64,000 bases of DNA, taken from assembly GCA_958295945.1 (NCBI GenBank), contig OY282386.1, forward strand, positions 1,303,371-1,367,370. Direction: 5' to 3'. Below, one piece after another: positions 6,648 to 50,348 of this stretch (its first letter is position 1; each line of letters starts with the position of its first letter). The notes beneath the pieces are model-generated. The model was not told the DNA's origin. It did not search any database and worked only from the letters and a program-made list of their open reading frames with translations. The position numbers were made by a program, and so were the translations under genes. The stretch comes from Candidatus Poribacteria bacterium (GTDB taxonomy: Bacteria > Poribacteria > WGA-4E > WGA-3G).

Positions 6648-6875
6648 TTGGTTGTCTCTATTCCGTAGTAAAGCAGCACTGCAATTTCTAGAGTGTATCT
6701 CGTAAAAACATAATTAAAGATTCGAAGTCGTGGACTTTTTGGAATTCGTAAGAAATATTGGGACGCATCTTATCACTATAACCTTATAGGTAGCCTCCTT
6801 TGTAAATTGCAAATTTAGCGATAGACATTATGCCGATTTAATTGTCCAATGTTGCTTCATTCAAAGGCGTGGCGT

Positions 6876-6940
6876 GTAGGGGCGGGGTTTCCCCGCCCGA
6901 CTGGAATACTCGTGGACAGGCGGGGAAACCCCGCCCCTAC
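6876..6940. repeat. REP pair in inverted orientation (BIME-like): GTAGGGGCGGGGTTTCCCCGCCC ... GGCGGGGAAACCCCGCCCCTAC
   Basis: Two GC-rich hairpins, each starting with GTAG, arranged head-to-head with a 20-nt spacer between the MTase and SNF2 genes. Confidence 0.6.
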
Positions 6941-6996
6941 GATGTTCACAGGGGACGCTGATTAATTCATTATAATGTCTGATATAGATATAAGTA

Positions 6997-15026: not shown

Positions 15027-15051
15027 ACTGTGGTTATCTCCTTGCTTATTT

Positions 15052-15318
15052 TTAATTTGTGTTTGTAACTGGTAGTTCACCATGCATGTGAAAATCGACA
15101 CTGAACGGTAACGCGATGTGCGATTCTTTATTAGCAAAGTGTTGTGAAAAATCTATGAGTGTGAAACCGACAAGTTGTTTCGTGTCAGGGTGAAAACGTA
15201 GAATTATATCGTCTGCGTATTCAACGTAGTCAGTATATTCGGGTTTGCCTCGTGTTACATAAAGCACGTCCGCATCTTGATCATATACAATTTTGAGTTC
15301 ATCCATTACGTTTTTCAT
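15052..15318 (-). CDS. DUF2283-family small protein (antitoxin-like)
   Basis: KIVYDQDADVLYV ... DDIILRFHPDTKQLVGFTLIDFS matches the DUF2283 pattern. Start moved to ATG 15316-15318 (MKNVMDE) with GGAA upstream. The track start is inside the IS. Confidence 0.6.
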   Translation of the reverse strand: MKNVMDELKIVYDQDADVLYVTRGKPEYTDYVEYADDIILRFHPDTKQLVGFTLIDFSQHFANKESHIALPFSVDFHMHGELPVTNTN

Positions 15319-15329
15319 GTTTAGTTCCT

Positions 15330-33307: not shown

Positions 33308-35434
33308 ATGACAAAATACAACAAAATAAACATCTATTGTCTACTAACAATCATCTTCTTTAGTTTCAGTTTCTCATTACCATCTTTTGCACAGGATAAT
33401 GAGATCAGTGAAAATATTGAAGATGTGATTGATGTTGCATTAGATTTAGACGGTGAATTGAGTTACGTAGAAATTGATGATAGCGAAATATTAAATGAAA
33501 TTAACGGACAAGTAACGGTGTGTGCTTGGATTAAAGCAACAAACTTTCCTACCAGATATCTACCAATCATATACAAAGGGGATGAACGTCTGCCCGGTAT
33601 CACAAACCGTAGTTTTGTGATGTATCTACGACATGATGGTGCGTTGCAATTCGCTTCTTCACCTGATGGAAAAAATGAGAAGTATATCTTCTCACCAATG
33701 GGTGCAGTCAAACTCAATAAATGGCATCATGTTGCTGGCGTTGTGGACACGACGAGAAATATCATCAGTGTCTATGTTGATGGTGTGGAAGCAGGTTATA
33801 GAGATTTTGGTAGAAACAGAAGATTTTATGAAAGCACACTACCATTAAAAATCGGTGGCACACATGAAGAGACTAATCATAACCACAGATCGTTTGTCGG
33901 ACAGATTGATGAGGTAAGCGTCTGGGATGTTGCCTTGACTGAAGAACAAATCCAAAACAATATGAATAACCGTTTGACAGGGAATGAAAGAGGATTGGTC
34001 GGTTATTGGAAATTTGATAAACAGAATGATGGTGAAATTTCCGATATGACCCATAATAAACTCAATGGGAAGTTGGTTGAAAACGCAAGATTAATAGATT
34101 ACATCCGTCCTATTCCAACAGGACTAAATCCAGAACAGCTTGAAAAACAAGCAATTCTATATGAAAAAGCACTCAAACGTGGAACAGTTTCTTATGAGAT
34201 ATACAGCACACTCGCTGAAATATATCTCAAAACAGGACGTACTGCTGAAGCGGAGAAAATATACGGACAGTCTTTAGAGGTGGATCTCAGACAGTCTGAA
34301 CATGGCGAGGCAATGAAAGCACTGTGGCAATTATATGATAGTGCAGGGAAAGAAAAAGCATTTATCACACTATTGGAAAAGTTGAAACAGGATATGCAAA
34401 AAAGTTCAGTCCTGTTTGAACTCTTAGGTGAGGCGTACACTAAAGTTGGTGACAAACAGAATGCGAAGGATGCCTACGCACAATGGATCAATCTGCGAAA
34501 AGATGAAGTTTTTCAGCAAGGTCTGTCATCTGCATATTATGAACTTGCGGATAAACTTCTTGAGAAAAACATATTTCCTGAAATCGCGTTGGAGTTGGTT
34601 TTAAATGCAGCAGATGTTGAACTGGACAGAGATTACATATTAGTGCTGGCACATGCATTCGTCGCGAATGAACAGTATGATGAAGCATTCCGACTCATAA
34701 AAAACATCTATGATATGTCTTATCTGCCCTTTGTTGAACGAAGGTTATTAACGCGGGTTGCAAAAGCAGGTAAAACTGTCAAGGATAAAGAAGGCTATGA
34801 GAATATGTTGAATGAGCTCATAGAATCTGTGTCAGACAATTTACGTTCTCAACTTCAGACAATGCTTGTTTTGGCACAAACCTATCAGGAAACCGGAGAA
34901 CACGAAAAGGCTGATGACCTTATTCGGAAAACAGGATTTATCACAGAAGATGCATGGCTGGTTCTTGGTCCTTTTGATAACTCGGGTGGGATAGGCTACA
35001 ATACACAGTATATCCCAGAAAACTTGCCGAGGATTGATACTTCCAAAGAATATGAAGGAAAAAATGGTACGGTACGTTGGAAAAAGATAAAGAACATTTC
35101 ACTCTTAGGAGATATCCGTTTAGGTAAAGAGACTGATTGGAGTGTTGCGTATACTTTTGCAACAATCCATTCACCTGATGAACGTGAAGTTGAATTTCGT
35201 TTTGATTCAGACGACCAAGGCAAAATCTGGGTTAACGGTATTGAAGTTTTCACACATACCAAGACGTTTACTGCGGAAATTGACAATTTCAAATTTCCTG
35301 TAAAACTGAATGCAGGGTTAAATAGTGTTCTCGTCAAGGTATGTGAACAAACAGGTGGCTGGGGATTTTATCTGCGAATAACCAACAAAGATGGTAATAC
35401 TTATGATGATTTAGATTTTATGAAAGTAGAGTAA
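33308..35434 (+). CDS. secreted LamG (concanavalin-A-like lectin) - TPR - galactose-binding-like-domain protein (708 aa)
   Basis: AAGGAGGA RBS and signal peptide. Laminin_G_3-like block (ALDLDG ... WHHVAGVVD ... VYVDGVEA ... IDEVSVWDVALTEEQI). C-terminal domain paralogous to that of the giant protein. Confidence 0.8.
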   Translation: MTKYNKINIYCLLTIIFFSFSFSLPSFAQDNEISENIEDVIDVALDLDGELSYVEIDDSEILNEINGQVTVCAWIKATNFPTRYLPIIYKGDERLPGITNRSFVMYLRHDGALQFASSPDGKNEKYIFSPMGAVKLNKWHHVAGVVDTTRNIISVYVDGVEAGYRDFGRNRRFYESTLPLKIGGTHEETNHNHRSFVGQIDEVSVWDVALTEEQIQNNMNNRLTGNERGLVGYWKFDKQNDGEISDMTHNKLNGKLVENARLIDYIRPIPTGLNPEQLEKQAILYEKALKRGTVSYEIYSTLAEIYLKTGRTAEAEKIYGQSLEVDLRQSEHGEAMKALWQLYDSAGKEKAFITLLEKLKQDMQKSSVLFELLGEAYTKVGDKQNAKDAYAQWINLRKDEVFQQGLSSAYYELADKLLEKNIFPEIALELVLNAADVELDRDYILVLAHAFVANEQYDEAFRLIKNIYDMSYLPFVERRLLTRVAKAGKTVKDKEGYENMLNELIESVSDNLRSQLQTMLVLAQTYQETGEHEKADDLIRKTGFITEDAWLVLGPFDNSGGIGYNTQYIPENLPRIDTSKEYEGKNGTVRWKKIKNISLLGDIRLGKETDWSVAYTFATIHSPDEREVEFRFDSDDQGKIWVNGIEVFTHTKTFTAEIDNFKFPVKLNAGLNSVLVKVCEQTGGWGFYLRITNKDGNTYDDLDFMKVE

Positions 35435-35523
35435 ATAGTGTAGGAGATTAATTGGAATATCATTCGTTGCTATATCTGATTCTCACCGTATTCATCTTAA
35501 AGGGAACTAACTCTCCACACATT

Positions 35524-35597
35524 GTAGTGCGGGGTCTCTGTGCCCCGCCGTCATTTCCGTAATTTAGACATGGTGGGGCACAGAGACCTCGCACTAT
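35524..35597. repeat. REP pair in inverted orientation: GTAGTGCGGGGTCTCTGTGCCCCGCC ... GGTGGGGCACAGAGACCTCGCACTAT
   Basis: Read directly. Intergenic between two TPR genes. Confidence 0.55.
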
Positions 35598-35651
35598 ATA
35601 AGATATATGAGATACACTCTAACAATTCAACTCATTAGGAGATATTTTTAT

Positions 35652-38600
35652 ATGACATGTTCAAAATTGTCTTTCTGCTTTGTAATTTTCATGTTAATCA
35701 CAGTAGGTACTTTCATAGCAGGACTTGAAGCGCAAGACACCGAAGAAAATAACACACCGCTACAAGATTTCATCAATGAAGCACAAACGTTAGTGCGATG
35801 GAACCAATTAGATGAAGCAATAGAAATCTACGAAAGAATAGTGATAGCAGCACCCGAAGACTATACATCTCTATTAGAACTCGCAACGCTTTACTCACGC
35901 ACAAATCAACATGAAAGCGCGGCGCAAACCTATGGCGAACTGCTTGAATTTGACACAGAAAATATAACCTATCAGGATGGACTTGTTAGCAGCTTACAAG
36001 CTGCTGGTAAATACGATGAGGCACTTGAACTCGCGCAGTCCTACATCCAATCAGATCCAACAGTAAGTAAACACTACGCACGACTCGGAAGACTCTATGA
36101 AGTTGAGGGTAATGAACATGCTGCCATCGCTAACTATAAGAAAGTAATTGAATTAGCAACCGGTGATAAACAAACGTATCTTAAGCTCGCAAAACTATAT
36201 TTTCTCAATGAAGACATAGATGCTACAGAAATGGCGTTGAAGAATGCCATTCTATCGCCCACATCCGCATCAGCGCGACAAGGTATTGAACGGCAATTGA
36301 TCAGTTTTTATCGCTATCATGGGAATTTAGGAGAGAAGTTACAACAAGCTGAAAATGATGGGACAATCACATTCCAGATGCTGAAAGTCCTTGCCGAATA
36401 CTACAACAAAACCGGAGAACTGGACAATGCTGCTAATGCCTATAAGCGGGCACTTGACATGACAACCAGTTCTTCTGAGAAAGTTAGAATCTTTGCTGAA
36501 TTGTTCAAGGTATATATTCAACTCGGTGATATGGATTCGGTAATAGAACCTTATGAAACAGAGGCGAATTTGTCTATAAACAGCAAAACATTGTTCTACA
36601 CTTCTGAAAGAATTACAGTGACATCGGCAAGAATTGCACCAATATACAAATTTGAGACTGCACGTGACACATTGATTGGTGCTTTCAAGAGCCAAGATAA
36701 ACTTGAAGTGTTAAAAACATATTATGAAGGTAAACTTCATGAAAATGATGAGAATCCTGTTGCACGAACAATATTGGCAAGGATATATTGGGATGAAAGG
36801 GATTATCAAAAATCTGCTGAAATGTCCGAAGCACTTGGCAAAGCAGATTCTAACAATGTCCGTTATTTTTATTATGCTGCAGCTGCATTAAAAAGAAACA
36901 AACAACCTGAATTAGCCGATGAAATGCTTAATCAGGCGAAAACAGCACTTGCAGCCTGTAGCGAGAAAGATGACCCGTGGTTTCTTGGTTCACTTGCAAC
37001 AATCTGCAATGAAAATAGAATGTTTGAACCAGCACTTGAACTCTCCAAATCTGCCATTGAAATGAGTGAGAACGAAAAAGATAGTAGGATTCTGGATACT
37101 TTGCATGGAATACTTGCGAAGAGTTATCGTGAGACAAAACAGTACGAAGAAGCTCTTGACATATATCAGAATATGGCAAGCATAGAAAGGAATATCAGCG
37201 TCCGAAATAGGGCAAATAACGCGATCCGGGAAATCATCAAAGAGGGAAAACTATATGAAAAACTGATTCCTGAACAACTGAAGAATGTTGAGAAAAGCCC
37301 TAACAATCCAGAGATGATCTTGGAACTCGCGGAGAGTTATGAAGCCATAGATAATATCAAAGAAGCAATTGTGCAATATGAAAAACTTGCGGAACTGGAA
37401 CCTGAAAGAAGCTACGTCTACAGGAAGTTGGGTGACTTGTATCAAAAAGTGGATCGTGAGGTAGAGGAGGTAATGGAGGACAATGCACTTAGCTTAGATG
37501 GAGATGGGAGTTACGTTGAAATCGTGGACAGTGAGATGATTGACAATATCTCCGAACAAGTTACGATATCTGCATGGATCAAACCAACAGATTTTCCAAA
37601 CACCTGTACGACTGTACTTTTCAAAGGCAACAAACGAACACCTGATCATTCTCATCGTCAATTCGCGCTCTGGTTGTTTGATGAAGGTCTCGCTTATTTT
37701 GACGCATCCCCTAACGGTCTTTATATAAGATGGATTGCCTCTGAAAGCGAATCTATCCAAAGAAATCAATGGTACCACGTAGCAGGAACCATTGATGCCA
37801 AGAATGACAGTATAAAGTTATATCTAAACGGTACTGAAGTCAGAACAAGTAATTTTAAGGGACAGAGAAATTTGACTAAGACCACACTGCCATTGCGAAT
37901 CGGTTGTTCGCATGAAGAAGAAATATCTGAGCACGCATCATTTGCTGGACTAATTGATGAAGTGCGGGTTTGGAACATCGCGCGCACTGAAAATCAAATC
38001 CGTTCAGATATGTCCAAGCAGCTGAAAGGAGATGAAGCCGGTTTAGTAGGTTATTGGAAATTTGATGCAGAAACTGAAGGACGCGTTTCCGATAGTTCAC
38101 TCAATAAAAATGATGGCAAACTTGTTGGAAATGCTAAACTTGAACCTTACACTCGTCCAATTTTGGCAAGTTTAAAAGCTGATAACTTGACAAAGGCTGC
38201 ATCCTATTATGAAAAAGCCATTGAACTCAGACCAACTACATACCAGTATTATGATCGGTTAGCAAAATTATATATGGATCAGAACCAGGTATCAGATGCT
38301 GCCTATGTATATCGACGAGCATTAGACGCACGATTTAGACAAACAACCCTTGAAACAATAATTCGCGCTATCTCCGAACTTTACATTGATGAAGGGCAAG
38401 AGGACAAACTCATTGCTATCCTTGAGGAAGTAAAACCGAAAATGCAGGAGAGCGTGGTCCTGCACGGACTTTTAGGTGATCTCTACAAAAAAATAGGTGA
38501 TGCCGATAAAACTGAAATTGTAAACGCGAAGTGGTTGAAATTGAGAGAGCAAGAGGTGAACATACAGGATACACATTACCAACGTTGGTTTGCTGAAGAA

Positions 38601-38924
38601 CTTCTTGAAAAAGGTATATATCCAGAAACATCACTAAAATATGCCACACGTGCGATACAAGACAATGCGAAAATTAGCTATCACTTCCCACTGACACTTG
38701 GACGTGCGTATGTCGCGAATGATCGCTATGACGATGCACTGAGATATTTCAAATATGCGCTAAGTATTCTCTCTGCCAATGATTCATTGGATGATTATTG
38801 GAAAAAAGTCACCGATGCAAGCAAGAATGCAAACGACAAAGAACGTTACACACAAATGTTAGATGCGTTGAAAAATTCCATTCCACCAGAATACGCAAGT
38901 TCGGTGCAAATGTCTGCCGAATAA
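35652..38924 (+). CDS. secreted TPR - LamG - TPR protein (about 1090 aa). 3'-truncated paralog lacking the C-terminal galactose-binding-like domain
   Basis: Start moved to ATG 35652 (MTCSKLSF..., signal peptide, AGGAGA RBS). LamG block (LSLDGDGSYVEI ... WYHVAGTID ... LYLNGTEV ... IDEVRVWNIARTENQI). Shares the LLEKGIYPE ... AYVANDRYDDA module with the other two proteins but ends where they continue. Confidence 0.8.
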   Translation: MTCSKLSFCFVIFMLITVGTFIAGLEAQDTEENNTPLQDFINEAQTLVRWNQLDEAIEIYERIVIAAPEDYTSLLELATLYSRTNQHESAAQTYGELLEFDTENITYQDGLVSSLQAAGKYDEALELAQSYIQSDPTVSKHYARLGRLYEVEGNEHAAIANYKKVIELATGDKQTYLKLAKLYFLNEDIDATEMALKNAILSPTSASARQGIERQLISFYRYHGNLGEKLQQAENDGTITFQMLKVLAEYYNKTGELDNAANAYKRALDMTTSSSEKVRIFAELFKVYIQLGDMDSVIEPYETEANLSINSKTLFYTSERITVTSARIAPIYKFETARDTLIGAFKSQDKLEVLKTYYEGKLHENDENPVARTILARIYWDERDYQKSAEMSEALGKADSNNVRYFYYAAAALKRNKQPELADEMLNQAKTALAACSEKDDPWFLGSLATICNENRMFEPALELSKSAIEMSENEKDSRILDTLHGILAKSYRETKQYEEALDIYQNMASIERNISVRNRANNAIREIIKEGKLYEKLIPEQLKNVEKSPNNPEMILELAESYEAIDNIKEAIVQYEKLAELEPERSYVYRKLGDLYQKVDREVEEVMEDNALSLDGDGSYVEIVDSEMIDNISEQVTISAWIKPTDFPNTCTTVLFKGNKRTPDHSHRQFALWLFDEGLAYFDASPNGLYIRWIASESESIQRNQWYHVAGTIDAKNDSIKLYLNGTEVRTSNFKGQRNLTKTTLPLRIGCSHEEEISEHASFAGLIDEVRVWNIARTENQIRSDMSKQLKGDEAGLVGYWKFDAETEGRVSDSSLNKNDGKLVGNAKLEPYTRPILASLKADNLTKAASYYEKAIELRPTTYQYYDRLAKLYMDQNQVSDAAYVYRRALDARFRQTTLETIIRAISELYIDEGQEDKLIAILEEVKPKMQESVVLHGLLGDLYKKIGDADKTEIVNAKWLKLREQEVNIQDTHYQRWFAEELLEKGIYPETSLKYATRAIQDNAKISYHFPLTLGRAYVANDRYDDALRYFKYALSILSANDSLDDYWKKVTDASKNANDKERYTQMLDALKNSIPPEYASSVQMSAE

Positions 38925-39155
38925 ATATCAACCTGAGTATAATTTGTATTTGAGATAACGAAATGAAATATCCAATAACACTTTTTCTGGTTCTTTCTAT
39001 AGTATTGAGTTGTTCATCAGTTGAATACGTTGATATACCTGATGATAACTTAGCTGCAGCGATACGTGACAATCTCGGATTATATCAAGACGACACTATT
39101 ACACGCCGTCAACTAAGTAAACTAACAAAACTATCTGGGCCACAAAGAAATATAA

Positions 39156-40078
39156 GAGGGTGTTAACTAACTAATGATATTTGGTTGTCCTCCGCCGAGA
39201 TTTAAAATGTCAAACATGTCCGCATTGACACGGAACCGCGCAAACAAAGCAATCGTTAGGTCTACCATTTCCACGCTTTTGGAAACAATAATGGACTTAC
39301 GTTTGAACCTACCGAACCAATGCCGCATCTGACAGTTATTACGCTCAATACCGTGTGTCTCTGCTTTATCCTGAACATGTTTTGAAGGAGGTAGGATGGT
39401 TTCATAGACCTGCCACTTGTCAGTCCAATATCTCTTGACATTGAAAATAGCAAGGCGATTTGTCAGTTTTGTGAGGGTTTCTGCGTTGCGTCCACCGCAT
39501 TCCCAATCTATGAGGTGTCCCGTGTTTCTGTCCAATGCCTTCCATATCCAAAGTTTGTTTTTCTTGTTTTGGATGTAGTGCCACATCTCATCAAGTTCTA
39601 AACTAACAAGTGTGCCAGGTGTGAGCGCGGGTTTCGGTGCATGCTTTTTCGCAAAGGTGCGTATCCAGTTCAGCACAGCAGGGACAGAGACATCAAAAAG
39701 TTTTGAGATAGCATGCATTGAAATGCCATGGCAATATAAAAGCACAGACACCCTTTTATGCTCGGGTGGATGTCCTCGGGGTGTCGTGCGCGTCCATTGA
39801 TACCCACAAAGTTTACATTTATGGCGTTGGTTTTCGTTAACGAAACCATTTTTCACAAAGTCCTCATTTTGACATCTTGGACACTTATTCATGATATTCT
39901 CCTTGTAAAGTGGTTGTTTTTGAAGAGAATACACATTATCAGCACATAAGTCAAGAAAAATCGTTTGATTTCTGTTGACACCTTTTGCCAAATATGTTAG
40001 CATTTAAACAATTAGTTGTGATGCAACGCAGTTTAGAGGGACTGTGAGTTTTCGTATCATTATTTAGTTAACACCCTC
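39156..40078 (-). mobile_element. IS1-family insertion sequence (923 bp) with 24-bp imperfect terminal inverted repeats and an 8-bp target-site duplication AAATATAA
   Basis: IR-L GAGGGTGTTAACTAACTAATGATA (39156-39179). IR-R TATCATTATTTAGTTAACACCCTC (40055-40078). Direct repeats AAATATAA at 39148-39155 and 40079-40086. Confidence 0.8.
39167..39892 (-). CDS. IS1-family transposase (fused InsA zinc-finger plus InsB-like)
   Basis: N-terminal CPRCQNEDFVKNG ... CKLCGY zinc finger. LDEMWHYIQNKKNKLWIWKALDR and HGIERNNCQMRHWFGRFKRKS match IS1 InsB. Start moved to ATG 39890-39892 with AAGGAG RBS. Confidence 0.85.
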   Translation of the reverse strand: MNKCPRCQNEDFVKNGFVNENQRHKCKLCGYQWTRTTPRGHPPEHKRVSVLLYCHGISMHAISKLFDVSVPAVLNWIRTFAKKHAPKPALTPGTLVSLELDEMWHYIQNKKNKLWIWKALDRNTGHLIDWECGGRNAETLTKLTNRLAIFNVKRYWTDKWQVYETILPPSKHVQDKAETHGIERNNCQMRHWFGRFKRKSIIVSKSVEMVDLTIALFARFRVNADMFDILNLGGGQPNIIS

Positions 40079-42523
40079 AAATATAAAAGACATCAGTGGC
40101 TTGCAATATGCTAAACATTTAAGTGCTTTGGAACTCTATGGTAATCAAATCCAAGATATTTCTCCACTTGCAGATTTAAAGAAACTAACAAGGTTGAATC
40201 TGAGTAACAATAATATCACAGATATTTCTCCACTAAATGGGTTGAAAGAACTTACTTACTTATCACTTGAACAGAATCAAATCCACGACATTCAACCTAT
40301 TGAAAACCTGAGTAAACTCAAGTATCTATTTATTGAGCAGAATCCAATAAAAGACCTTTCGCAAGAACAACATCTTCCTGTTACCAATGCTGTTGAGAAC
40401 ACCACACTGCTACACCCATCGGTAAAAGTGAATCAATATGATACGCAGATTAGTCTACCCGATGGAGCCATAGCACGCCTTGGAAAAGGAGGTATCAACG
40501 TCTTACGCTTTTCTCCTGATGGAACGATGCTTGCGGTTGGCACTGATATAGGTTTGTGGTTATACGATAGGACATCAGGAGAAGCAAAACCTTTACAGGC
40601 AAATTCTCTTGGTCAGTCCAATGCCATAGCATTCTCGGCAAATGGACGTTTCTTGGCAAACGGGGGTTCTTCAAATCCTGTAATTCAATCGTGGGATCTG
40701 TCATCAGGTGAGAAACTTTCTGAAATTCCTTTACCAACATCAAGGACTATACATCTCATGAATAAAAGAGACGAAACGTTTCAAAAATCCGTAGCAGCTC
40801 TAACTTTTGCCAATAGCGGCAAAGGACTCATGAGTCTTAGTTATTCGGGGAAATTTAACTATTGGGATGTACTCAATGGCAAAGGATTATCTGAGCACGA
40901 TTCTAATTTTGATTATGAAGGTGTATTGGCACTCTCACAAGACGGTAGCAAATTTGCTTGTGGATATTGGAATGGAAAGATATGGACAGGAGATGCTACC
41001 ACAGGTAAACTAAAGAATAAACTCAACGGACATGGTAGAAGAATAAAGTTTCTTTCAAAGAATACAAAATATCGTCGTGTTCGTGCATTGGCATACTCAC
41101 CAGATTCTAGATTCTTAGCAAGCGGCAGTGAAGATAAAACAATAAAGATTTGGAGTACGAACAAATATAAAAAACACGCCACTCTCAAAGGGCATACAGG
41201 ATGGGTATCTGCACTCGCCTTTTCTGAAGATGGCAAATATATCGCCAGCGGGGACACGGAGAGCAATGTTCATCTTTGGGATGTCCATAAGAAACGAAGG
41301 ATTGCCATTTTCAAGGGACACACAAATGGTATCCTTGCTATGACGTTTTCCCCTGATGGAAAGACGCTTGCTACCGGCAGTGCTGATGGAACTATACGGT
41401 TTTGGGATGTCAACACTCAAAAAGCAGAATCCATCTTTACTACTGGACATACAGAATGGGTCAGAGATATATCATTTTCTCCTGATAGCACAAAGGTATC
41501 AATTGCACATTACAATGCAACAGCAGAAAGATGGGATATTAACACCTCACGTCAGCTGGATGTATTCAACAAGAATCCACAAAGAATCTCGTACGCAGTT
41601 GCATTATCACCCGACGGTTCACATCTTGCATGTCACGGTGTTGAAGGCAATATCGCTTTCAATGTTGATGGGTGGGACACAGTGATTGAGTATTATAATA
41701 GTGATAGAACTCGTCTATGGAGTCTTGATACCAAGAAAGAACTTCCATCTATTTCAGATGTGTTTGGAGACATGGCGTTTTCTCCTGACAACAAGATTCT
41801 TGCTTGTAAGAGTATACAGGATATATCACCGTGGCATAAAACCACAGATAGTGAAGTTGGAAGACGCTTAAGTATGGTAGTAGGGCGGAGTAAAGAGATT
41901 CTAATAACTGAAGTTAGGACAGGAACAGAATTACACCGTTTTCATGTGGGAAAACGTGGAGGACCGCTTAGTGGAGGAGGATTAAGAGAAAAAATATCAT
42001 TGATGTTCTCACCTGAGGGAAGCCTACTGGCAGCGGGAGGTATGATTTGGGATGTGGATACGTGGGAACAACTTCATAAATTCACATCAGAATACACCGC
42101 AATCATGGCAATTTCAAAAGACAGTCATACCCTTGCTGTCGAGAATAATGTAGTGACAGACAAAGATATCCAATTGTGGAATTTTTTTACACCGGATCAA
42201 CCACAGAGTTTAAATACTATTGATTTACCACCAACAATTGAAAATAGAGCCTTAACAATTTCACCTAATGGATCTATCCTCGTAGAATCTACAAAAATGG
42301 CTTGGGATACTTATGTTGAAGCTAACATATCATTATGGGATGTAAATACAGGTGAAAAATTGCTATCCCTTCCAGGACACACTGAACCGATTACAAAGTT
42401 GGAATTTTCTCACGATGGCAAAACGCTTGCAAGCGGATCTAAAGATGGCACTGTGCTTTTGTGGGACTGGAATAAGATTATAGCAAAAGTCAAACCAGAT
42501 GATAGATAATGGAGAATAAATCA

Positions 42524-44617
42524 ATGAAAACAAAACATCTGTTTTACATACTATTATTGTCGTTCTCAGTGATAGTCTATCCAGTTTTCGCACAAACAAA
42601 ATTAATGAGTGGACTACCCGATGATGCCATTGCACGACTTGGAAAAGGCGGTATCAATATTATACAATTTTCACCTGATGGTACGCATCTTGCTGTTGGA
42701 ACTGATATCGGTGTACGACTGTATAATGTTGCAACAAAACAAGGAATATCACTCCCCAACAGAATCGTTGGACAGATCAACACTATAGCCTTTTCAAAAG
42801 ATGGACGGATACTTGCTTGTGGTGGATATTTTAACCCTATAATTCAGTTATGGGATGTAGAGTTCAGAGTGGAACTTCCATCACTACAATCATCTAAACC
42901 CCAGGCTGCCATTGGGTGGGAACATTTTCCCATACATTCGGTCATCGCATTAGCTTTCTCAGAGAATGAAAGAACACTTATTGGTGTAGATTATGAAGGA
43001 CTGTTCACATACTGGGATATAAACTCACTACAGATAGAATCAGAACAGCGACAATATACCATTTTGGATATATACGCATCCACATTATCACAGGATGGAC
43101 GCACGTTCATTACTGGCAGAGAAAATGGTGAAATCTCACTTTGGAATACACAGACAGGGAACAGAGATGCAATTATCAAAGGACACAAACCATTTTTTAA
43201 AAGGTCAAAACACAATCCGCGCATACGTGCATTGGCATTCTCACCTGATGGAACCACATTTGCAAGTGGGAGCAAAGACATGACTGTGCGTATTTGGGAA
43301 ACAGAAAGCCGGAAAAGAAAAGCAACGCTGAAAGGTCATAAGGCTTGGGTCACTGCAATTGCTTTTTCCAAGAATGGAAATACCGTTGCCAGTGGTGATT
43401 CAAATGGACATATCAGGATTTGGGATACACGAAGAAAGCGTTTGAAGACAAAACTTGATAGTCATACAAATAGTATCATTTCGCTTGCATTCTCACCAGA
43501 TGGAAAAACATTTGCAAGTGGGAGTGCTGATGGAACGATCCAACTATGGGATACCAATTCCTATAAAGCACCTGTTACTTTGGATACCGATTATACAGAG
43601 TGGGTCAGAGCAGTAGCATTCTCACCTGACAATACAACTGTCTCTACAGCAATGTATAATAATACAGTGCAGAAATACGATGCGCAGACAGGAGACTTGT
43701 TATCCAATTTCAATAAAGCAAACCAACAGACAACATACTCAGTTGCAATATCACCTGATGCAAGTCTACTTGCCTGCCATCCGGTCCAAGGAAATATCGT
43801 TTTCAATACAAGGGAAAAATGGCACACGGAATATAGGTATCAGGGACACGAGAAAATCCAGGTGTGGGATTTAGATACAGGTCAAGAACTTCCTACAATA
43901 ATGAATGCTTTTGGTAGGATGGTATTTACCCCTGATAGTAATTATATCTCCAGTACTTCATCTGAAGGGGTTGAGGTATGGGTCTCTTGGACCTCCTTAG
44001 GATCTTATTCTCATGGAAGTGACGATGGAATCTATCTTTGGAATGTCCGAACTGGGGATAAGCTATATCATTTGGAACAAAAGGATATGTATGAATCCAA
44101 GTCTATGGCTATTTCTCCTGACGGGACTAAACTTGTTACACCCGGAAAGAGCCGCAGGTTTGGAACACTTATATGGAATATTGAGAAGTCTGATGAACCT
44201 ATTTCACTCGCTGAGGATGCTGATGCCGCGGCTTTTTCACCCGATGGTGCAATCCTTGCAACAACACGGAATTTTGATAAACATTTATGGGATACTGAAA
44301 CGGGGGAGATGTTGCGTAAAATTCGTCCCCGAGGACCGAATGCAGCGGAAGGGAGGACTATAACCTTCTCACCTGAAGGTTCATTAATCCTTGTTTCAAA
44401 AGTCGAACCTATAATGCCATTTCCTTCTGATTTCATTGAAATCATTGATGTGGATACTGGAGAAACTTTACGCTCCCTTCCTGGACATACAGAACCTATT
44501 GAAACATTGGTTTTCTCACATAATGGAAAAATCTTGGCAAGCGGATCTAAAGATGGCACTGTGCTTTTGTGGGACTGGAATAAAATCTTAGCAAAAATCA
44601 AACCAGATGATAGATAA
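42524..44617 (+). CDS. secreted WD40 beta-propeller repeat protein, paralog of the upstream interrupted gene
   Basis: Signal peptide and multiple WD40 units (GH ... WD). The last 90 bp are nearly identical to the 3' end of the upstream WD40 gene. Start at 42524 (GGAGA RBS) or 42509. Confidence 0.8.
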   Translation: MKTKHLFYILLLSFSVIVYPVFAQTKLMSGLPDDAIARLGKGGINIIQFSPDGTHLAVGTDIGVRLYNVATKQGISLPNRIVGQINTIAFSKDGRILACGGYFNPIIQLWDVEFRVELPSLQSSKPQAAIGWEHFPIHSVIALAFSENERTLIGVDYEGLFTYWDINSLQIESEQRQYTILDIYASTLSQDGRTFITGRENGEISLWNTQTGNRDAIIKGHKPFFKRSKHNPRIRALAFSPDGTTFASGSKDMTVRIWETESRKRKATLKGHKAWVTAIAFSKNGNTVASGDSNGHIRIWDTRRKRLKTKLDSHTNSIISLAFSPDGKTFASGSADGTIQLWDTNSYKAPVTLDTDYTEWVRAVAFSPDNTTVSTAMYNNTVQKYDAQTGDLLSNFNKANQQTTYSVAISPDASLLACHPVQGNIVFNTREKWHTEYRYQGHEKIQVWDLDTGQELPTIMNAFGRMVFTPDSNYISSTSSEGVEVWVSWTSLGSYSHGSDDGIYLWNVRTGDKLYHLEQKDMYESKSMAISPDGTKLVTPGKSRRFGTLIWNIEKSDEPISLAEDADAAAFSPDGAILATTRNFDKHLWDTETGEMLRKIRPRGPNAAEGRTITFSPEGSLILVSKVEPIMPFPSDFIEIIDVDTGETLRSLPGHTEPIETLVFSHNGKILASGSKDGTVLLWDWNKILAKIKPDDR

Positions 44618-44720
44618 ACAAAATTGATTTAACCCTTGACATACTCAATATAAATGTAGTACACTATTATCATACTCAAAATAATCAGCAATTGACGATA
44701 CTCCATAGGAGGTCTACTTC

Positions 44721-46193
44721 ATGCCGGAAAAGATGATTCTTGAAAAAATACGTCATGTCCGCCGTCGTTTGAATGTACAAGGTTATTTTCAAACCCTTGC
44801 AAAGTTCTTACTAATTGGACTATTAGTGTGTACTCCCGTAGTTATTGTTGATAGTTTAATAACCTCATTTAACATCCCACCGTATGCCTTTGCCTGTGTA
44901 GCGGTTGGAATTGCGTTAGTATCTTACATTGTCCGTCTCATTCGTCCTGTTGATCTACACGAAGCTGCCCGCGCGATTGATATTGACGGTTCCCTAAAGG
45001 ATCGCGTCGTCAGTGGATTAGAACAAATTGAACATAAATCGAATGAAACGTTGAGTGAACTGCAGTTAAAAGATACTACAGAAAGATTACAAGCAATCCC
45101 TTTGAAACAGGTAGCACGATATACAGTTCCCCGTGAAACCAAATATGTTGCGCTTGTAGCAATATTTGTCGTCGCATTCTCATTTGTAGAGTTTTTCGCA
45201 CCACCAGCAACTTCAACTGAAATAGACTATTCTCCGCAAATCGCTGCAGAAGCGGATGTCCTATTGAATACAATTGATGAAGCGAAAAAAGAAGCAGAAT
45301 TGAGTGAAGACGAGGAACTCAAAGAGATTCTGGAAGAGATTGAAAAACGAACTCAGGAATTGAAGAAGCCGCAAATTTCCCCGAAAGAAGCTCTAGCAAG
45401 AATGACCGAATTGACTGCGTTGTTGAAGACGAAGATTGATCCAATCAAAATGGCACAACAAGAAGCACTGATGAAAGGTCTTGGTCAACAGTTCATCGGA
45501 AATCCAATTCTCGGTGAATTCGGACAGAAGTTGAAAAAGGGTGACTATGATGAAGCTGCTGACAAACTTGACAAAGTGGCAAAGGACATTCCAAAGTTTG
45601 ACCAAGAGCAGAAACAAAACTTATCTGATGAACTCAAACGCGCAGGTAATAGTCTAAAAGACAGCGATCTCAGTGGACTTGGCGGACAACTATCTGGTGC
45701 AGGTGATGCTTTGGGAGACAATGATGGCGAAGGTGCACAGGGAAAACTAAGTGAATCCAGCAAAAGCATCCGTAATTTCGACCTTCTCAAAAATCGCAAC
45801 CAGAAGTTGGAAGATTTGTTGTGTGCGTGTGAGGAATGTAAAAACTGCATCGGCGCATGTTGCGGTGCTGGCAACGTTCCATCAAATTTGCTATCCAACA
45901 ATCCAAGTGATAAAGCGGGAACGAAGACATCTGAATCACAACAAGGTGAACTAACTTCACTGGATTCTACACTGAATCTTGAACAGTTGAAAGGTGTCCA
46001 AGGTGAAGGAGATTCTTCGGTTGAAACTACAAAGGCATCTGCTGAAGGACAAGAATCATCGCTCAGTTACAAAGATGCTTATATGAAGTATCAGAAGTTA
46101 TCTGAGGATGCCATGACAGAAGAACAGATCCCTCTCAGCTACAAGTTCTATGTGAAACGTTATTTCAAATCCATCAAACCTGCAGAAGAGTAA
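44721..46193 (+). CDS. membrane-anchored coiled-coil protein, first gene of the MoxR/Bat-like operon
   Basis: Strong AGGAGG RBS. Two N-terminal TM segments, then a long charged coiled-coil region. Confidence 0.6.
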   Translation: MPEKMILEKIRHVRRRLNVQGYFQTLAKFLLIGLLVCTPVVIVDSLITSFNIPPYAFACVAVGIALVSYIVRLIRPVDLHEAARAIDIDGSLKDRVVSGLEQIEHKSNETLSELQLKDTTERLQAIPLKQVARYTVPRETKYVALVAIFVVAFSFVEFFAPPATSTEIDYSPQIAAEADVLLNTIDEAKKEAELSEDEELKEILEEIEKRTQELKKPQISPKEALARMTELTALLKTKIDPIKMAQQEALMKGLGQQFIGNPILGEFGQKLKKGDYDEAADKLDKVAKDIPKFDQEQKQNLSDELKRAGNSLKDSDLSGLGGQLSGAGDALGDNDGEGAQGKLSESSKSIRNFDLLKNRNQKLEDLLCACEECKNCIGACCGAGNVPSNLLSNNPSDKAGTKTSESQQGELTSLDSTLNLEQLKGVQGEGDSSVETTKASAEGQESSLSYKDAYMKYQKLSEDAMTEEQIPLSYKFYVKRYFKSIKPAEE

Positions 46194-46278
46194 ACTGAGT
46201 CCTCATGCTAAATCACCGCAGAGATGTCCTATCTTTGCGGTGATTTAATGCCTACGCACTGCTACCGTAAGGTGAAAT

Positions 46279-47262
46279 ATGTCCGAACAAGTAGAACAGA
46301 AACATGATGAATTTCGAGAGACATTTTTAAAAATACAAGAAGAGATTTCAAAACGTATCGTTGGTCAAAAAGAGATAATTGAAGGTGTCCTCATCTGCTT
46401 GATGACAGGAGGACACGCACTCTTAGAAGGCGTGCCCGGTTTAGGAAAAACGCTACTCATCAGCACACTCAAGGAAGTTCTTGATCTTGAGTATCAAAGA
46501 ATACAGTTCACACCTGACCTGATGCCTGCTGACATCGTTGGAACGACCATCGTCGCAGAAGATGAGAACAGACAGAAGTTTTTTGAATTCCAACCTGGAC
46601 CCATATTCGCTAACCTCGTCCTTGCCGATGAAATCAATCGAGCAACCCCAAAAACACAATCCGCTTTGTTAGAGGCAATGCAAGAGAAGTCTGTCACCGT
46701 TGCGGGACAGCACCGTCCGCTTGACTTACCATTCTTCGTAATGGCAACCCAAAACCCGTTAGAAATGGAAGGCACATATCCGCTACCTGAAGCACAACTT
46801 GACCGTTTCTTTTTCAAGTTGAAGGTAGAGTTTCCCTCTCTTGACGAACTTGATTTAGTTATGGAACGCACAACAAAACGGGAAATGCCAACTGTTGGGA
46901 AGGTATGTGATGGCAAGCAGATAAACGAACTGGAACAGATTGTGCGGGACATTCTCGTCGCAGAAGATGTACGAAGATATGCCTTGCGGATTGTTCTCGG
47001 CACACATCCCGAAACCGATGATGCACCGGAAAAGACAAAGCAATATGTTCGGTACGGTTCAAGTCCTCGTGGCGCACAAGCACTGATTCTTGCAAGTAAG
47101 GTGCGTGCAATTCTCGACAGTCGGTACAACGTCGCGCGTGAAGACATTCAAGCGGTTGCATTACCAAGTCTGCGTCATCGCCTCATCCTGAGTTTTGAAG
47201 GTGAAGCGGAAGGTATTGACCCCGACGAAATCATTCTACATCTGTTAGAAGTAATCGATTGA
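46279..47262 (+). CDS. MoxR-family AAA+ ATPase
   Basis: Walker A GVPGLGKT. LADEINRATPKTQSALLEAMQEKSVTVAG. About 320 aa. Confidence 0.9.
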   Translation: MSEQVEQKHDEFRETFLKIQEEISKRIVGQKEIIEGVLICLMTGGHALLEGVPGLGKTLLISTLKEVLDLEYQRIQFTPDLMPADIVGTTIVAEDENRQKFFEFQPGPIFANLVLADEINRATPKTQSALLEAMQEKSVTVAGQHRPLDLPFFVMATQNPLEMEGTYPLPEAQLDRFFFKLKVEFPSLDELDLVMERTTKREMPTVGKVCDGKQINELEQIVRDILVAEDVRRYALRIVLGTHPETDDAPEKTKQYVRYGSSPRGAQALILASKVRAILDSRYNVAREDIQAVALPSLRHRLILSFEGEAEGIDPDEIILHLLEVID

Positions 47263-47355
47263 AGATTTAGAAAAATCTGATTGCTTAATCCTGTTTATCT
47301 CTCACCTACACACAAGAAAACCTGTCCTAATCCTTGATATTACTGAGGTCTTCTT

Positions 47356-48246
47356 ATGCAAAACGATACACAATCCGCATTTGACAGTGAATTCCTAAAA
47401 AAACTAGAATATCTTTATATCGTCTCAAAGAAGATATTTTCAGGACGAATCAAAGCAGAAAGACGCAGCACAAGACGTGGGGTGAGCGTTGAATTTGCTG
47501 ATTATCGGAACTACACACCTGGCGATGATTTCCGTTATATCGATTGGAATGCGTTTGCAAGATTAGACGAACTTTTGCTAAAACTTTATGAGGAACGCGA
47601 AGACCTGCACATCTACTTCCTCGTAGATGTAAGTCAATCCATGACCTATGGTGAGTTGCCAAAACTGATATATGCCAAACGGGTGGCTGCTGCGCTTGCT
47701 TATATCGGTCTGTCAAATCTGGACCGTATCGGGATCACAGCATTCAACACAACGGACATGAATCGTTTGCCTACAGAACGTGGTAAAGCGAAAATCTTTA
47801 CCGTCCTGAATTTCCTGGATCAGATCAACGGTAGTGGAGAAACGGATATGGAACACGCATTCCAGAATTTTGTCCATCAGACAAAACGACGTGGGTTGGT
47901 TGTGTTGATATCCGACCTATTTGACCCCAAAGGATTCACTGCTGGTCTGAATATGCTAAAGTTTCAGAAACATGACCTTTTCGTCATACATATTATTGAT
48001 GAAAAGGAGGCAGAACCCAGTCTACTTGGTGACTACCACCTTGTTGATGTTGAAACAGATCAACTCCGACCTGTCACCATCAACGAAAATCACATTAAAC
48101 GTTACCAGGCTCTTTTCCAAAAATATTGTGATGACCTTGACCGATATTGTAGACAACGCGAGATTAGCCTCGTCCGGACGATGACAAAAGCACCTTTCGA
48201 AGAACTTATTCTGAGAATATTTCGTATGGGTGGTTTTGTGTCATAA
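47356..48246 (+). CDS. DUF58-family protein (vWA-like, MoxR partner)
   Basis: DYRNYTPGDDFRYIDWNAFAR hallmark motif. Confidence 0.85.
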   Translation: MQNDTQSAFDSEFLKKLEYLYIVSKKIFSGRIKAERRSTRRGVSVEFADYRNYTPGDDFRYIDWNAFARLDELLLKLYEEREDLHIYFLVDVSQSMTYGELPKLIYAKRVAAALAYIGLSNLDRIGITAFNTTDMNRLPTERGKAKIFTVLNFLDQINGSGETDMEHAFQNFVHQTKRRGLVVLISDLFDPKGFTAGLNMLKFQKHDLFVIHIIDEKEAEPSLLGDYHLVDVETDQLRPVTINENHIKRYQALFQKYCDDLDRYCRQREISLVRTMTKAPFEELILRIFRMGGFVS

Positions 48247-48290
48247 CGGTTCAATTTTGATATAAGATTGTCCGTGAATATTATAGATAG

Positions 48291-50348
48291 ATGAATTTTT
48301 TGTCTCCCACCTCCCTATTCCTATTTGGTCTGGCAATCCCGATCATCGCGCTGTATATTCTTAAACTGCGCCGACGACGTGAACCTGTCTCCACCTTGAT
48401 GTTCTGGGAACAACTCTTCAAAGAGAGACAAACCACATCGCTATTTCAAAGACTGAAACATCTGCTGTCGTTATTGTTACAACTGCTGTTTCTCGCGCTT
48501 TTAGTACTTGCCATTGCAAGACCACAATTCGCATTTATTACCAAGTCTGCAAGACAATTGATCCTAATTATTGATAACTCCGCGAGCATGAATGCTGCGC
48601 TGAAACTTGATCCCGATAATCCTTCTTCTGAAACACGTTTGGATTCTACTAAGGAACAGGCATTACAGTTAGTCCAAGGACTCCGATTTATGGACGAAAT
48701 GACTGTCATTAGTAATCATAAACAACCAACAATTCGGACACCATTTACAAGCCACCAGAAAACACTGAGAGAAGCAATTGAATCTATTGACCCGACCGAT
48801 ATTAGAACAGACCTAAAGCCAGCAGTCGATTTAGCGTATACAATCGCTGAAACAAAGCCGAACCCAGAAATCGTAATAATGAGCGATTTTCATGCAGTTT
48901 CAGAAAAGACAATAACACTATTTCAAGATACGCAGTCAGAAAGCCAACCGTCTGAAGAAGAACAGGAAAGTGTAGAGAAACCTAAACTTCACCTGATTAG
49001 GATAGGTGAAGATAACGATAACGTCGGTATCACACAGTTTCGAGTGCGGAAAAGCATTGTAAATGTCTTTGATTACGAAACGTTGTTGACCGTTGTGAAT
49101 GCTTCCGATGAAGAAAAGAAATGTAGTGTTGAACTATATTTCAACGACAGTCTCTTTGATGTGCGTCCCTACACACTTGCCCCCGGTGAGAAAAAATCTG
49201 AAATCTTCAGCAATTTCGCATTTGAAGGTGGGGAATTGAAAGCGGTTTTGGACACTACTGATGCTTTATTATCGGATAATGTTGCGTATGCTACCTTGCC
49301 GAAACGCAAGCAGATCTCTGTTTTATTAGTTACAGAGGAAAATCCGTTTTTAGAAAAAGTGCTCTCGGTTGACGAAGAACTTAATCTGAATGTTATGAAT
49401 CCATCGGAATATGAATCTTCTCCAAAAACTGCACAGGTGGTTATCTTTGACAGATACAGTCCGACGAATATAGGGGATGGCAATTTTATGTTTATCTATC
49501 CACCTAAATCAGAAAATACAACAGAGGAGGATGTGCAAGACACTGCGTTAACTTGGGACATAGGAGAAGCACTTGATACACCAATCATTACAGATTGGGA
49601 ACGGACACATCCGATATTACAGCACGTCCATCTGGAGAACGTGCTAATCGGAGAAGCATATCAGATTACACCTCCATCAACTGCACAGATTTTAGCGCGT
49701 TCGTTTGAATCTCCTGTACTATTCATTGATGTTGCACAGAACCGAAAGGTTGTTTTTGTTGCAATCAACATCCTGCAGTCCGATCTGCCATTGCGTATTG
49801 CATTCCCTGTTATCATAGCAAATACGATTCAGTGGTTTCAACACGACCAAGGCATACAGGAATATCACCTGCAGACAGGAGAAGTGTTAAGATATAAGTT
49901 TGATTCGGATTATCCAACTATCACAGAGACTGAACAAGTAGAAGAATCTCCCACTGGAAATTCGCAACAAACCTTGATGATTACTGGTCCAGGAGACAAA
50001 TCGTGGGAAATTCCTATTGAAAACGATGAGATGCTGTTTGATCACACACAACAGGCTGGGTTTTACAAGGTTACAGACTCAGATACTACAATTATCAGTG
50101 ATGCTGATGAGCAAAATACCAACGAAGAAGAGACGGAAGAACCGAAGCAGTTGTGGGCAGTCAATATCGCAAGCGAAACTGAATCACATATTGGGATAAC
50201 CGATGAAATTGAAGATATGTTAACGGATTCTGAGGTATTGATCGGTAGTTCTTTCTTCCGTTATCCGCCTTGGATCTATTTAATTTTGTTGGCAGTAGGA
50301 TTAACCGTTGTGGAGTGGTTCCTGTATCAACGGAGAAGAATTGAATAA
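48291..50348 (+). CDS. BatA-like aerotolerance-operon protein (N-terminal double-TM BatA domain plus a vWA-like region)
   Basis: N-terminus MNFLSPTSLFLFGLAIPIIALYILKLRRRR. vWA-like LILIIDNSASM. C-terminal TM segment. Confidence 0.7.
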   Translation: MNFLSPTSLFLFGLAIPIIALYILKLRRRREPVSTLMFWEQLFKERQTTSLFQRLKHLLSLLLQLLFLALLVLAIARPQFAFITKSARQLILIIDNSASMNAALKLDPDNPSSETRLDSTKEQALQLVQGLRFMDEMTVISNHKQPTIRTPFTSHQKTLREAIESIDPTDIRTDLKPAVDLAYTIAETKPNPEIVIMSDFHAVSEKTITLFQDTQSESQPSEEEQESVEKPKLHLIRIGEDNDNVGITQFRVRKSIVNVFDYETLLTVVNASDEEKKCSVELYFNDSLFDVRPYTLAPGEKKSEIFSNFAFEGGELKAVLDTTDALLSDNVAYATLPKRKQISVLLVTEENPFLEKVLSVDEELNLNVMNPSEYESSPKTAQVVIFDRYSPTNIGDGNFMFIYPPKSENTTEEDVQDTALTWDIGEALDTPIITDWERTHPILQHVHLENVLIGEAYQITPPSTAQILARSFESPVLFIDVAQNRKVVFVAINILQSDLPLRIAFPVIIANTIQWFQHDQGIQEYHLQTGEVLRYKFDSDYPTITETEQVEESPTGNSQQTLMITGPGDKSWEIPIENDEMLFDHTQQAGFYKVTDSDTTIISDADEQNTNEEETEEPKQLWAVNIASETESHIGITDEIEDMLTDSEVLIGSSFFRYPPWIYLILLAVGLTVVEWFLYQRRRIE

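Follow-up and report, generated by a model that had tools for sequence, protein, structure and literature searches.

Insertion sequences of the IS1 family are about 0.7-1.2 kb long, carry short terminal inverted repeats with the terminal consensus 5'-GGnnnTG and generate target-site duplications of 8-9 bp, as the family is described in ISfinder. In canonical IS1, insA and insB' are joined by a -1 programmed frameshift that yields the transposase InsAB', and InsA acts as a repressor. The enterobacterial element has an inverted-repeat length and a duplication size similar to those reported here and prefers AT-rich targets, while a single-ORF subgroup of the family is recognised in the ISfinder/TnPedia classification. 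The hosts of interest in this work, the Poribacteria, contain abundant WD40 and PF12799 leucine-rich repeat (LRR) proteins, often with signals (PMC3909097).

Here we describe a locus in a stretch of 64,000 nucleotides of Candidatus Poribacteria DNA (hereafter the window) at which a single-ORF IS1-family element has, with little doubt, transposed into the first LRR of an exported LRR-WD40 lipoprotein gene. The locus was compared with occupied and empty sites in related genomes, and several other explanations for its structure were weighed.

Structure of the insertion element

The element and its flanking target copies comprise the following features:

39156-40078, transposase on the minus strand: complete IS1-family insertion sequence of the single-ORF type, 923 bp, recognised from its anatomy and profile matches
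39156-39179: terminal inverted repeat IRR at the transposase 3' end, 24 bp, GAGGGTGTTAACTAACTAATGATA
40055-40078: terminal inverted repeat IRL at the transposase 5' end, 24 bp, reverse complement GAGGGTGTTAACTAAATAATGATA
39148-39155: left copy of the target-site duplication, 8 bp, AAATATAA
40079-40086: right copy of the target-site duplication, 8 bp, AAATATAA
39167-39892, minus strand: transposase gene, 241 aa, with AAGGAG upstream and encoding a zinc finger, an HTH and a DDE domain

A first-pass annotation of this DNA had described a 923-bp element with 24-bp terminal inverted repeats and an 8-bp AAATATAA target duplication. The size was borne out and the duplication proved exact at both positions, while the inverted repeats have the length proposed but are not strictly identical, as IRR and IRL agree at 23 of 24 positions and differ at position 16 (C on one arm, A on the other). 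A degenerate 24-mer of the inverted repeat was found at two places in the window, both of them IS ends, against a chance expectation of 0 from 100 shuffles. The bases next to the two copies differ, which fixes the duplication at exactly 8 bp, and the target is made up of A/T alone. Read inwards, IRR has a stop codon in each of the three frames, and the transposase ORF itself also ends within it (stop codon at 39167-39169, minus strand). The IS ends read GAGGGTG, in which TG at positions 6-7 fits the family consensus GGnnnTG and position 2 is A, not G; the corresponding terminal sequence of enterobacterial IS1 is GGTGATG. Rfam and tRNA scans identified no RNA genes in the window.

Transposase and family membership

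Profile searches upheld the earlier assignment to the IS1 family, with 200.9 bits for NF033558 (NCBIfam IS1 family; cut-off 100), which was matched over profile positions 1-199 of 199, and 92.6 bits for PF03400 DDE_Tnp_IS1 (cut-off 24.1). The NF050000 IS1/IS1595 Zn-binding domain was also detected (39.2 bits, cut-off 28), and an HTH is only weakly supported, HTH_23 scoring 20.3, under its cut-off of 24.6. Among 14 homologues (54-79% identical), residues C4, C7, C26 and C29 of the N-terminal CxxC...CxxC zinc finger were invariant or nearly so, and D101 (ELDEMW), D158 (TDKW) and E183 (IERNN) were invariant. We take these three acidic residues to be the catalytic triad, by their correspondence to the D, D and E motifs of IS1 InsB. 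The DDE core shares 34-37% identity with that of enterobacterial IS1A (768 bp) over residues 79-235, and the best plasmid match to the transposase, with 44.9% identity, carries an IS1 family transposase annotation.

Because the zinc finger, HTH and DDE domains are all encoded by one continuous 241-aa ORF, the element is placed as a single-ORF IS1-family insertion sequence and not as one of the canonical two-ORF type; unlike in canonical IS1, the ORF is unbroken and a frameshift is not needed. Its length of 923 bp, its 24-bp inverted repeats and its 8-bp duplication in an AT-rich target all lie within IS1 family ranges and resemble those of the single-ORF subgroup, as does the arrangement of all three domains in one ORF whose 3' end is inside the inverted repeat. 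A longer transposase ORF of 278 aa begins at an upstream ATG at 40003, and gene callers differed between assemblies, choosing the 241-aa form in one and the 278-aa form in another.

The nearest IS relatives outside the lineage (L006, L008 and L010) stand at other loci in Poribacteria MAGs; by its 78-82% DNA identity to them, the element is distinct from these relatives. At the protein level, transposase relatives reach 93% identity within a cluster consisting of Poribacteria only. The window contains one IS copy, and the exact transposase is recorded at a single locus, on two contigs with the 241-aa call and on one contig with the 278-aa call. Scanning GTDB representative genomes with the inverted repeat yielded five single-end matches, all in other Poribacteria MAGs, and no match to the source genome. 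Additionally, two metagenome assemblies continue unbroken through the IS in contigs of 94 kb and 52 kb, which is an indirect hint that its copy number is low. A second IS1-type transposase (P0149) is encoded on the same chromosome.

The interrupted LRR-WD40 lipoprotein gene

The gene is represented by two pieces on either side of the element:

38963-39155, plus strand: N-terminal gene fragment with the lipoprotein signal peptide, the N-terminal region and the opening part of the first LRR
40087-42509, plus strand: gene body with the remaining part of the LRR block plus the WD40 beta-propeller region, in frame with 38963-39155

Joined together, these pieces give 2616 nt, a multiple of 3 with a terminal stop only, and a restored product of 871 aa that reads ...GPQRNIKDISGLQYAKH... 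across the junction. The first-pass annotation had predicted a continuous frame once the IS and one duplicate copy were taken out, and the 871 codons indeed contain no internal stops. What it had called a signal-peptide/LRR exon has the right coordinates, although a bacterial gene fragment is meant, and the signal peptide is specifically of the lipoprotein type, with a lipobox (...IVLSC) at Cys17 of the restored protein that is kept in 8 of 9 full-length orthologues. This signal was called by a PROSITE-PS51257-like rule, and the same rule gave no match on the 802-aa product of the gene body.

The gene product matched PF12799 LRR_4 with 62.6 bits and PF00400 WD40 with 207.9 bits (cut-off 27 in both cases), and the LRR block has a periodicity of 22 aa, or 66 bp. 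In combining PF12799 LRRs, WD40 repeats and a secretion signal, it resembles the eukaryote-like repeat proteins (LRR, WD40, TPR) of Poribacteria (PMC3909097). The gene belongs to a cluster that also contains paralogues of TPR/LamG and WD40 type, and the protein database holds thousands of relatives, including intact orthologues at 54-88% identity. Judged from these matches, the interrupted protein is one of many paralogues and in itself nothing unusual.

The ORF of the N-terminal fragment extends 11 nt into the IS, where it terminates at a TAA (39164-39166) in the inverted repeat and yields 67 aa. In the body, translation could restart no earlier than TTG 40101, the start of the 802-aa ORF (P0001) called by annotators. 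No Shine-Dalgarno motif was found before this TTG, as is also the case for about half of the genes in the window.

These features are consistent with a mechanism in which the DDE transposase would have made staggered cuts 8 bp apart in AAATATAA, and repair of the cuts would have copied the target on both sides of the element. In this way the gene's promoter, its start codon and its first 64 codons, lipoprotein signal included, would have been parted from the remaining 807 codons. As translation from the native start would end within the IS, three codons in and at the inverted-repeat stop, the native product would be lost, and we infer a loss of function of the interrupted gene. A signal-less product may be expressed from TTG 40101; such a restart product would have no export signal and would stay cytoplasmic, since the lipoprotein signal (Cys17) is on the lost N-terminal piece.

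Promoter-like sites and the downstream gene

Three further features bear on expression at the locus:

39926-39954, minus strand: probable transposase promoter, TTGACT-17-TATTCT, its function suggested by a consensus scan
39975-40003, plus strand: outward-facing promoter-like site, TTGACA-17-TAGCAT with TG upstream, 10/12 consensus match
42524-44617, plus strand: WD40 paralogue that follows the interrupted gene, 697 aa counted from ATG, with GGAG as Shine-Dalgarno motif and a signal peptide of its own

The position of the transposase promoter is kept in the IS relatives, as TTGACT-17-TATCCT in L010 and L006 and as TTCACT-17-TATCCT in L008. The outward-facing site is divergent from it, points through the inverted repeat towards the gene body and may act as a promoter; at the same position, L008 has TTCACA-17-TATCAT and L010 has TTGACA-17-TATTAT, with a weaker site in L006. 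A hairpin downstream of the outward site (40027-40046; -8.2 kcal/mol, z -1.19) was considered as a terminator in the right end of the IS and rejected as weak. With the outward site, this would allow some transcription of the gene body and the downstream paralogue, which weighs against a full loss of function. The downstream WD40 paralogue begins 15 nt past the stop of the interrupted gene, and for this reason it is probably co-transcribed with that gene; it may also be subject to polarity from the insertion.

Occupied and empty sites among related genomes

In two related circular Poribacteria genomes, L002 and L011 (nucleotide identity about 90% and 84%), the orthologue is intact, at 872 aa and 869 aa, respectively. 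In L002, a single AAATATAA is found at 6186-6193 within the intact ORF, and when L002 is aligned to the window the two blocks overlap in precisely these 8 bp. L011 likewise has a single AAATATAA at the homologous site within its intact ORF, with the same block overlap. Both are therefore true empty sites, and the comparison with related genomes that the first-pass annotation had proposed supports the simple, clean insertion it described, against which none of the observations speaks. All other full-length orthologues (P0004-P0009) are uninterrupted. The neighbouring tandem paralogues vary among the three genomes.

A 100% identical IS copy occupies the same site in L001, L003, L004 and L005, and two of these (L003 and L004) are further assemblies of the lineage that share the insertion. 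The occupied assemblies are a 5.3-Mb contig, a SPAdes-style NODE_93 and scaffold_163, which point to different assemblers or naming schemes, and the three are near clonal, with 1 SNP in 12.7 kb round the site and 0 in the gene. An intact allele of the window lineage was not found in a protein search with the restored 871 aa, where the best intact relative was 88% identical, and a degenerate 46-mer of the restored junction had 0 matches in JGI metagenome contigs. The insertion thus appears to be fixed in the sampled clone and is not visibly polymorphic. Together with the diverged copies at other loci, the empty sites in L002 and L011 provide an indirect indication that the element may be active in transposition.

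Age of the insertion and alternative explanations

The restored gene contains 0 stops and 0 frameshifts in 2613 nt (871 codons). This intact frame bounds neutral drift to less than about 0.024 substitutions per site, compared with a dS to L002 of 0.24, and had the gene drifted neutrally along the whole branch since L002, some 15 new stops should have arisen. The dN/dS of the gene (0.18-0.26) is inside the range of the neighbouring genes (0.08-0.35), and dN to the outgroup is 0.0975 for the window versus 0.1158 for L002, with no excess in the window lineage; neither dN/dS nor the relative-rate comparison gave a signal of relaxed selection, and the SNPs among the three assemblies carry no information on it. 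The perfect duplication, the intact transposase ORF, the lack of stops and frameshifts and the lack of excess dN together support an insertion that is recent relative to species divergence. In that sense the earlier description of the event as recent holds, for an insertion that is not visibly polymorphic. The insertion would have followed the split from the closest sequenced relatives, which keep the empty site, and too little time would have passed since then for the gene halves to decay.

An older date was nevertheless considered, in which the gene is a long-standing fixed pseudogene and the term recent is wrong, as all three assemblies available for the lineage carry the insertion and the searches for an empty allele gave none. 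The agreement of these assemblies says little on age, however, because they are almost clonal, and such a history is improbable in view of the perfect target duplication, the intact transposase, the complete frame where some 15 stops were expected and a dN that is not accelerated. The direction of the event is polarised through parsimony alone, and IS elements are known to excise precisely between their target duplications, which would allow an IS that was ancestral at the site and precisely excised in the L002 and L011 lineages. We give this almost no weight, since it needs either two independent precise excisions or one in an L002-L011 ancestor excluding the window, and the latter conflicts with the identities, as L002 shares about 90% with the window but only about 82% with L011. 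It would also require the interrupted gene to have stayed intact without selection over a dS of about 0.6, and P0004-P0009 show no interruption. A repeat misassembly that placed the IS here has no specific observation in its favour and is just as hard to credit, as the element is flanked by an exact 8-bp duplication and the junctions are identical in three assemblies produced with different assemblers or naming schemes.

More consideration was given to an IS that inactivates the gene and also rewires the locus, its outward promoter driving the 802-aa cytoplasmic protein and maybe the downstream paralogue, with a change in expression or localisation. For other IS families, promoters that read outward from the ends of the element are well documented, and the TTGACA-17-TAGCAT site with its TG keeps its position in L008 and L010 although these relatives are only 78-82% identical overall; additionally, the sole terminator-like hairpin downstream is weak and the body ORF is intact. 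The case consists of consensus matches in four sequences, however, with a weaker site in L006, and TTG 40101 is not preceded by a Shine-Dalgarno motif. A family that conserves its lipoprotein signal is unlikely to function in the cytoplasm, and a recent insertion explains the intact ORF equally well. On balance, we consider rewiring at this locus unlikely. Slightly less likely again is the wider proposal that the Poribacteria IS1 clade has a conserved outward promoter beside the left inverted repeat, which would make a signal-less cytoplasmic LRR-WD40 protein and/or drive the downstream paralogue. If it were true, IS insertions would bring about relocalisation or rewiring of the symbiont's eukaryote-like proteins, besides knockout.

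Implications

The transposition of a single-ORF IS1-family element into the lipoprotein gene is an ordinary gene-inactivation event by a new member of a known IS family. Gene-splitting IS insertions are commonplace, and the locus alone matters little. For annotation, the 67-aa and 802-aa ORFs should be treated as fragments of one pseudogene and not as two genes. Since the site is available both with and without the IS, the duplication is perfect and the restored frame is intact, the locus is a textbook-clean case for dating and benchmarking IS activity in uncultivated sponge-associated Poribacteria. It also shows that the repertoire of eukaryote-like LRR/WD40 surface proteins, thought to mediate interaction with the host, is still turning over.

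Structure of the insertion and empty sites in relatives

The first-pass annotation described an LRR-WD40 gene as split by a 923-bp element with 24-bp terminal inverted repeats and an 8-bp target duplication, whose removal restores the frame in silico. Sequence reading and junction recomputation placed this element at 39156-40078 and bore out the description in all but one respect: the inverted repeats, GAGGGTGTTAACTAACTAATGATA and the reverse complement of GAGGGTGTTAACTAAATAATGATA, have the proposed length but are not identical, matching at 23 of 24 positions. The exact direct repeat AAATATAA flanks the element at 39148-39155 and 40079-40086 and, since the bases beyond its two copies differ, the duplication is exactly 8 bp. 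With the element and one repeat copy removed, 38963-39155 is fused to 40087-42509 in a 2616-nt frame (the restored gene, 871 aa) that reads ...GPQRNIKDISGLQYAKH... across the join and has the terminal stop as its only one. Both inverted repeats carry stops in all three inward frames, and the transposase stop codon lies within an inverted repeat. A degenerate 24-mer of the inverted repeat had no further occurrence within the 64-kb window, where none was expected by chance.

Features at the insertion locus
39167-39892, minus strand: transposase ORF, 241 aa, preceded by AAGGAG; the sole minus-strand ORF of the element
42524 (likely start): next gene, a WD40 paralogue with its own signal and a GGAG motif, 15 nt past the split-gene stop

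Full-length orthologues were found with the restored protein in related genomes, the named ones being Candidatus Poribacteria. P0002 (872 aa, 88% identical to the restored protein) and P0003 (869 aa, 82%) lie on circular contigs of 5.2 and 6.2 Mb, respectively, and P0004-P0009 are 54-76% identical. The loci of the first two, L002 and L011, are empty sites with one AAATATAA each. The alignment of L002 to the window stops at 39155 and restarts at 40079, its blocks overlapping in L002 by exactly the 8 bp of the repeat (L002 6186-6193), and the copy in L011 lies inside CCACAAAGAAATATAAAGGAC. Both loci keep the gene order on either side of the site: TPR/LamG genes lie upstream of it, and downstream come the WD40 paralogues. 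The event is a simple insertion of the IS alone.

The surroundings vary among these genomes. The tandem LRR/WD40 paralogue array differs among the window (42509-42590), L002 (8622-12250) and L011 (9654-12707): in L002 an additional LRR-WD40 gene of 1120 aa separates the split-gene orthologue from a 697-aa WD40 gene, L011 carries an LRR-WD40 gene of 1017 aa at that place but no 697-aa gene, and in the window the middle LRR-WD40 gene is absent altogether. The paralogue 3' ends are about 83% identical (42339-42509 and 44447-44617 in the window), a similarity that could support recombinational gain or loss of paralogues. The orthologue in L011 is preceded by 712 bp (6289-7001) in place of a 38-46-bp spacer, a stretch full of short GC-rich REP/MITE-type palindromes, e.g., GGTGCGGTTTCCTAACCGCACC and GGCGAGGTTTCCTAACCTCGCC, and an IS4-type DDE_Tnp_1 transposase lies two genes downstream (14456-15775); this neighbourhood appears to be a mobile-DNA hotspot. 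A very large ORF of 3065 aa occupies window positions 23859-33056, upstream of the TPR/LamG genes.

Transposase and related elements

The assignment to the IS1 family, made earlier from the sequence alone, was supported by profile searches. The transposase matched NF033558, the NCBIfam IS1-family equivalog, end to end (200.9 bits, cut-off 100), as well as Pfam DDE_Tnp_IS1 (92.6, cut-off 24.1) and the IS1/IS1595 zinc-binding domain (39.2, cut-off 28). Gene callers disagree on its start, and an in-frame ATG upstream, at 40003, would give 278 aa. In an alignment with 13 homologues, 54-79% identical, the four zinc-finger cysteines, D101 (ELDEMW), D158 (TDKW) and E183 (IERNN) vary little or not at all; the last three motif contexts have their counterparts in the D-D-E regions of InsB from E. 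coli IS1. Among plasmid records, enterobacterial IS1A shares 34-37% identity over the catalytic domain, and a Methylobacterium 'IS1 family transposase' 44.9% over the full length.

Of the defining IS1 features tested, all were found except the canonical two-ORF frameshift arrangement, and the terminal GGnnnTG consensus only in part, as the termini read GAGGGTG. Canonical IS1 needs a frameshift; this element does not, as a single ORF encodes its zinc finger, HTH and DDE domains. It belongs among the single-ORF IS1 elements, within a clade of IS1-type elements specific to Poribacteria. A second such transposase, P0149 (242 aa), is 75% identical; a 5,337,261-bp contig is recorded for it and likewise for the split gene and this transposase, and the host chromosome apparently harbours two or more different elements of the clade.

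MITE-like, internally deleted derivatives of the clade were also observed. In L013 (1-364), IS positions 1-210 are fused directly to 771-923 in a 364-bp form with the two inverted repeats and the leader/promoter region retained; L009 (3344-3524) holds a comparable short form. The contigs L007, L012 and L014, all three from metagenomes or MAGs, break off at IS position ~193-207, a pattern to be expected if multiple copies, both full-length and deleted, occur there side by side. Additionally, a CCCTCT motif (40033-40041), ~40 nt inside the left inverted repeat on the transposase-sense strand, is invariant in all four aligned IS copies (alignment columns 41-46) and complementary to the GAGGG at the tip of the inverted repeat. 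Its role could be in transposase binding or end pairing, or it could form a leader hairpin.

Age and population status

Two more assemblies, ERZ15614124 (L003, NODE_93) and ERZ23496164 (L004/L001, scaffold_163), share this insertion, and their IS copies are 100% identical to the one in the window. L003 and L004 are the same in sequence and differ from the window by one SNP across 34101-46829. At the insertion locus, the population sampled is close to clonal. The other 28 of 29 differences cluster within 1.7 kb (46830-48509; MoxR-like AAA, DUF58 and BatA/VWA genes), following 12.7 kb with that single difference, and this cluster looks like a recombination tract from a diverged relative. No intact allele more than 88% identical was found in a 5.8-billion-protein collection, nor an empty site in JGI metagenome contigs with a junction-spanning pattern. 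In the clone sampled to date, the insertion is at or near fixation.

Between the restored gene and L002, dS was 0.24 and dN/dS 0.26; dN/dS was 0.18 both for the restored gene and for L002 against L011, and 0.08 to 0.35 for neighbouring genes. The dN of the window lineage to the outgroup (0.0975) is not above that of L002 (0.1158). Stop-creating changes make up 4.7% of single substitutions in the restored ORF, and the absence of any stop limits neutral drift since insertion to less than ~0.024 substitutions per site (95% confidence), a small part of the branch. The insertion is thus recent relative to species divergence, the sense in which its proposed recency holds.

Consequences for the interrupted gene

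The restored protein starts MKYPITLFLVLSIVLSC and matches a lipoprotein-signal rule at Cys17, a signal kept in eight of nine full-length orthologues, the exception having a truncated start call. About five 22-residue LRRs follow (LRR_4, 62.6 bits; 66-bp DNA periodicity), and beyond them a large WD40 region (207.9 bits). The IS lies between codons 64 and 65, in the first LRR. Reading from the native start gives 67 residues and then meets a TAA within the inverted repeat. The earliest start in the remaining 807 codons is TTG 40101, which has no Shine-Dalgarno motif before it, as is the case for about half of the window's genes, and its 802-aa product has no signal. Poribacteria WD40 and LRR proteins are believed to work on the cell surface (PMC3909097), and since the family also keeps its export signal, loss of function is the most likely outcome.

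Two promoter-like sites lie within the IS. TTGACT-17-TATTCT (minus strand, 39954-39926) is upstream of the transposase and conserved in related copies. Divergent from it, TTGACA-17-TAGCAT with an upstream TG (plus strand, 39975-40003) faces outward through the inverted repeat and into the body of the gene. IS relatives elsewhere in Poribacteria, just 78-82% identical overall, have TTCACA-17-TATCAT (L008), TTGACA-17-TATTAT (L010) and a weaker site (L006) at the equivalent position. The sole terminator-like hairpin beyond the outward site is weak (-8.2 kcal/mol, z -1.19). Many IS elements have outward promoters, and with such a putative promoter here, the IS might conceivably drive transcription of the truncated gene and of its neighbour downstream.

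That neighbour, the WD40 paralogue, is probably co-transcribed with the split gene, as its likely start is 15 nt past the stop, and it could suffer polarity from the insertion. Altogether, the observation is real and its initial interpretation is supported: this is an ordinary IS-mediated gene disruption.
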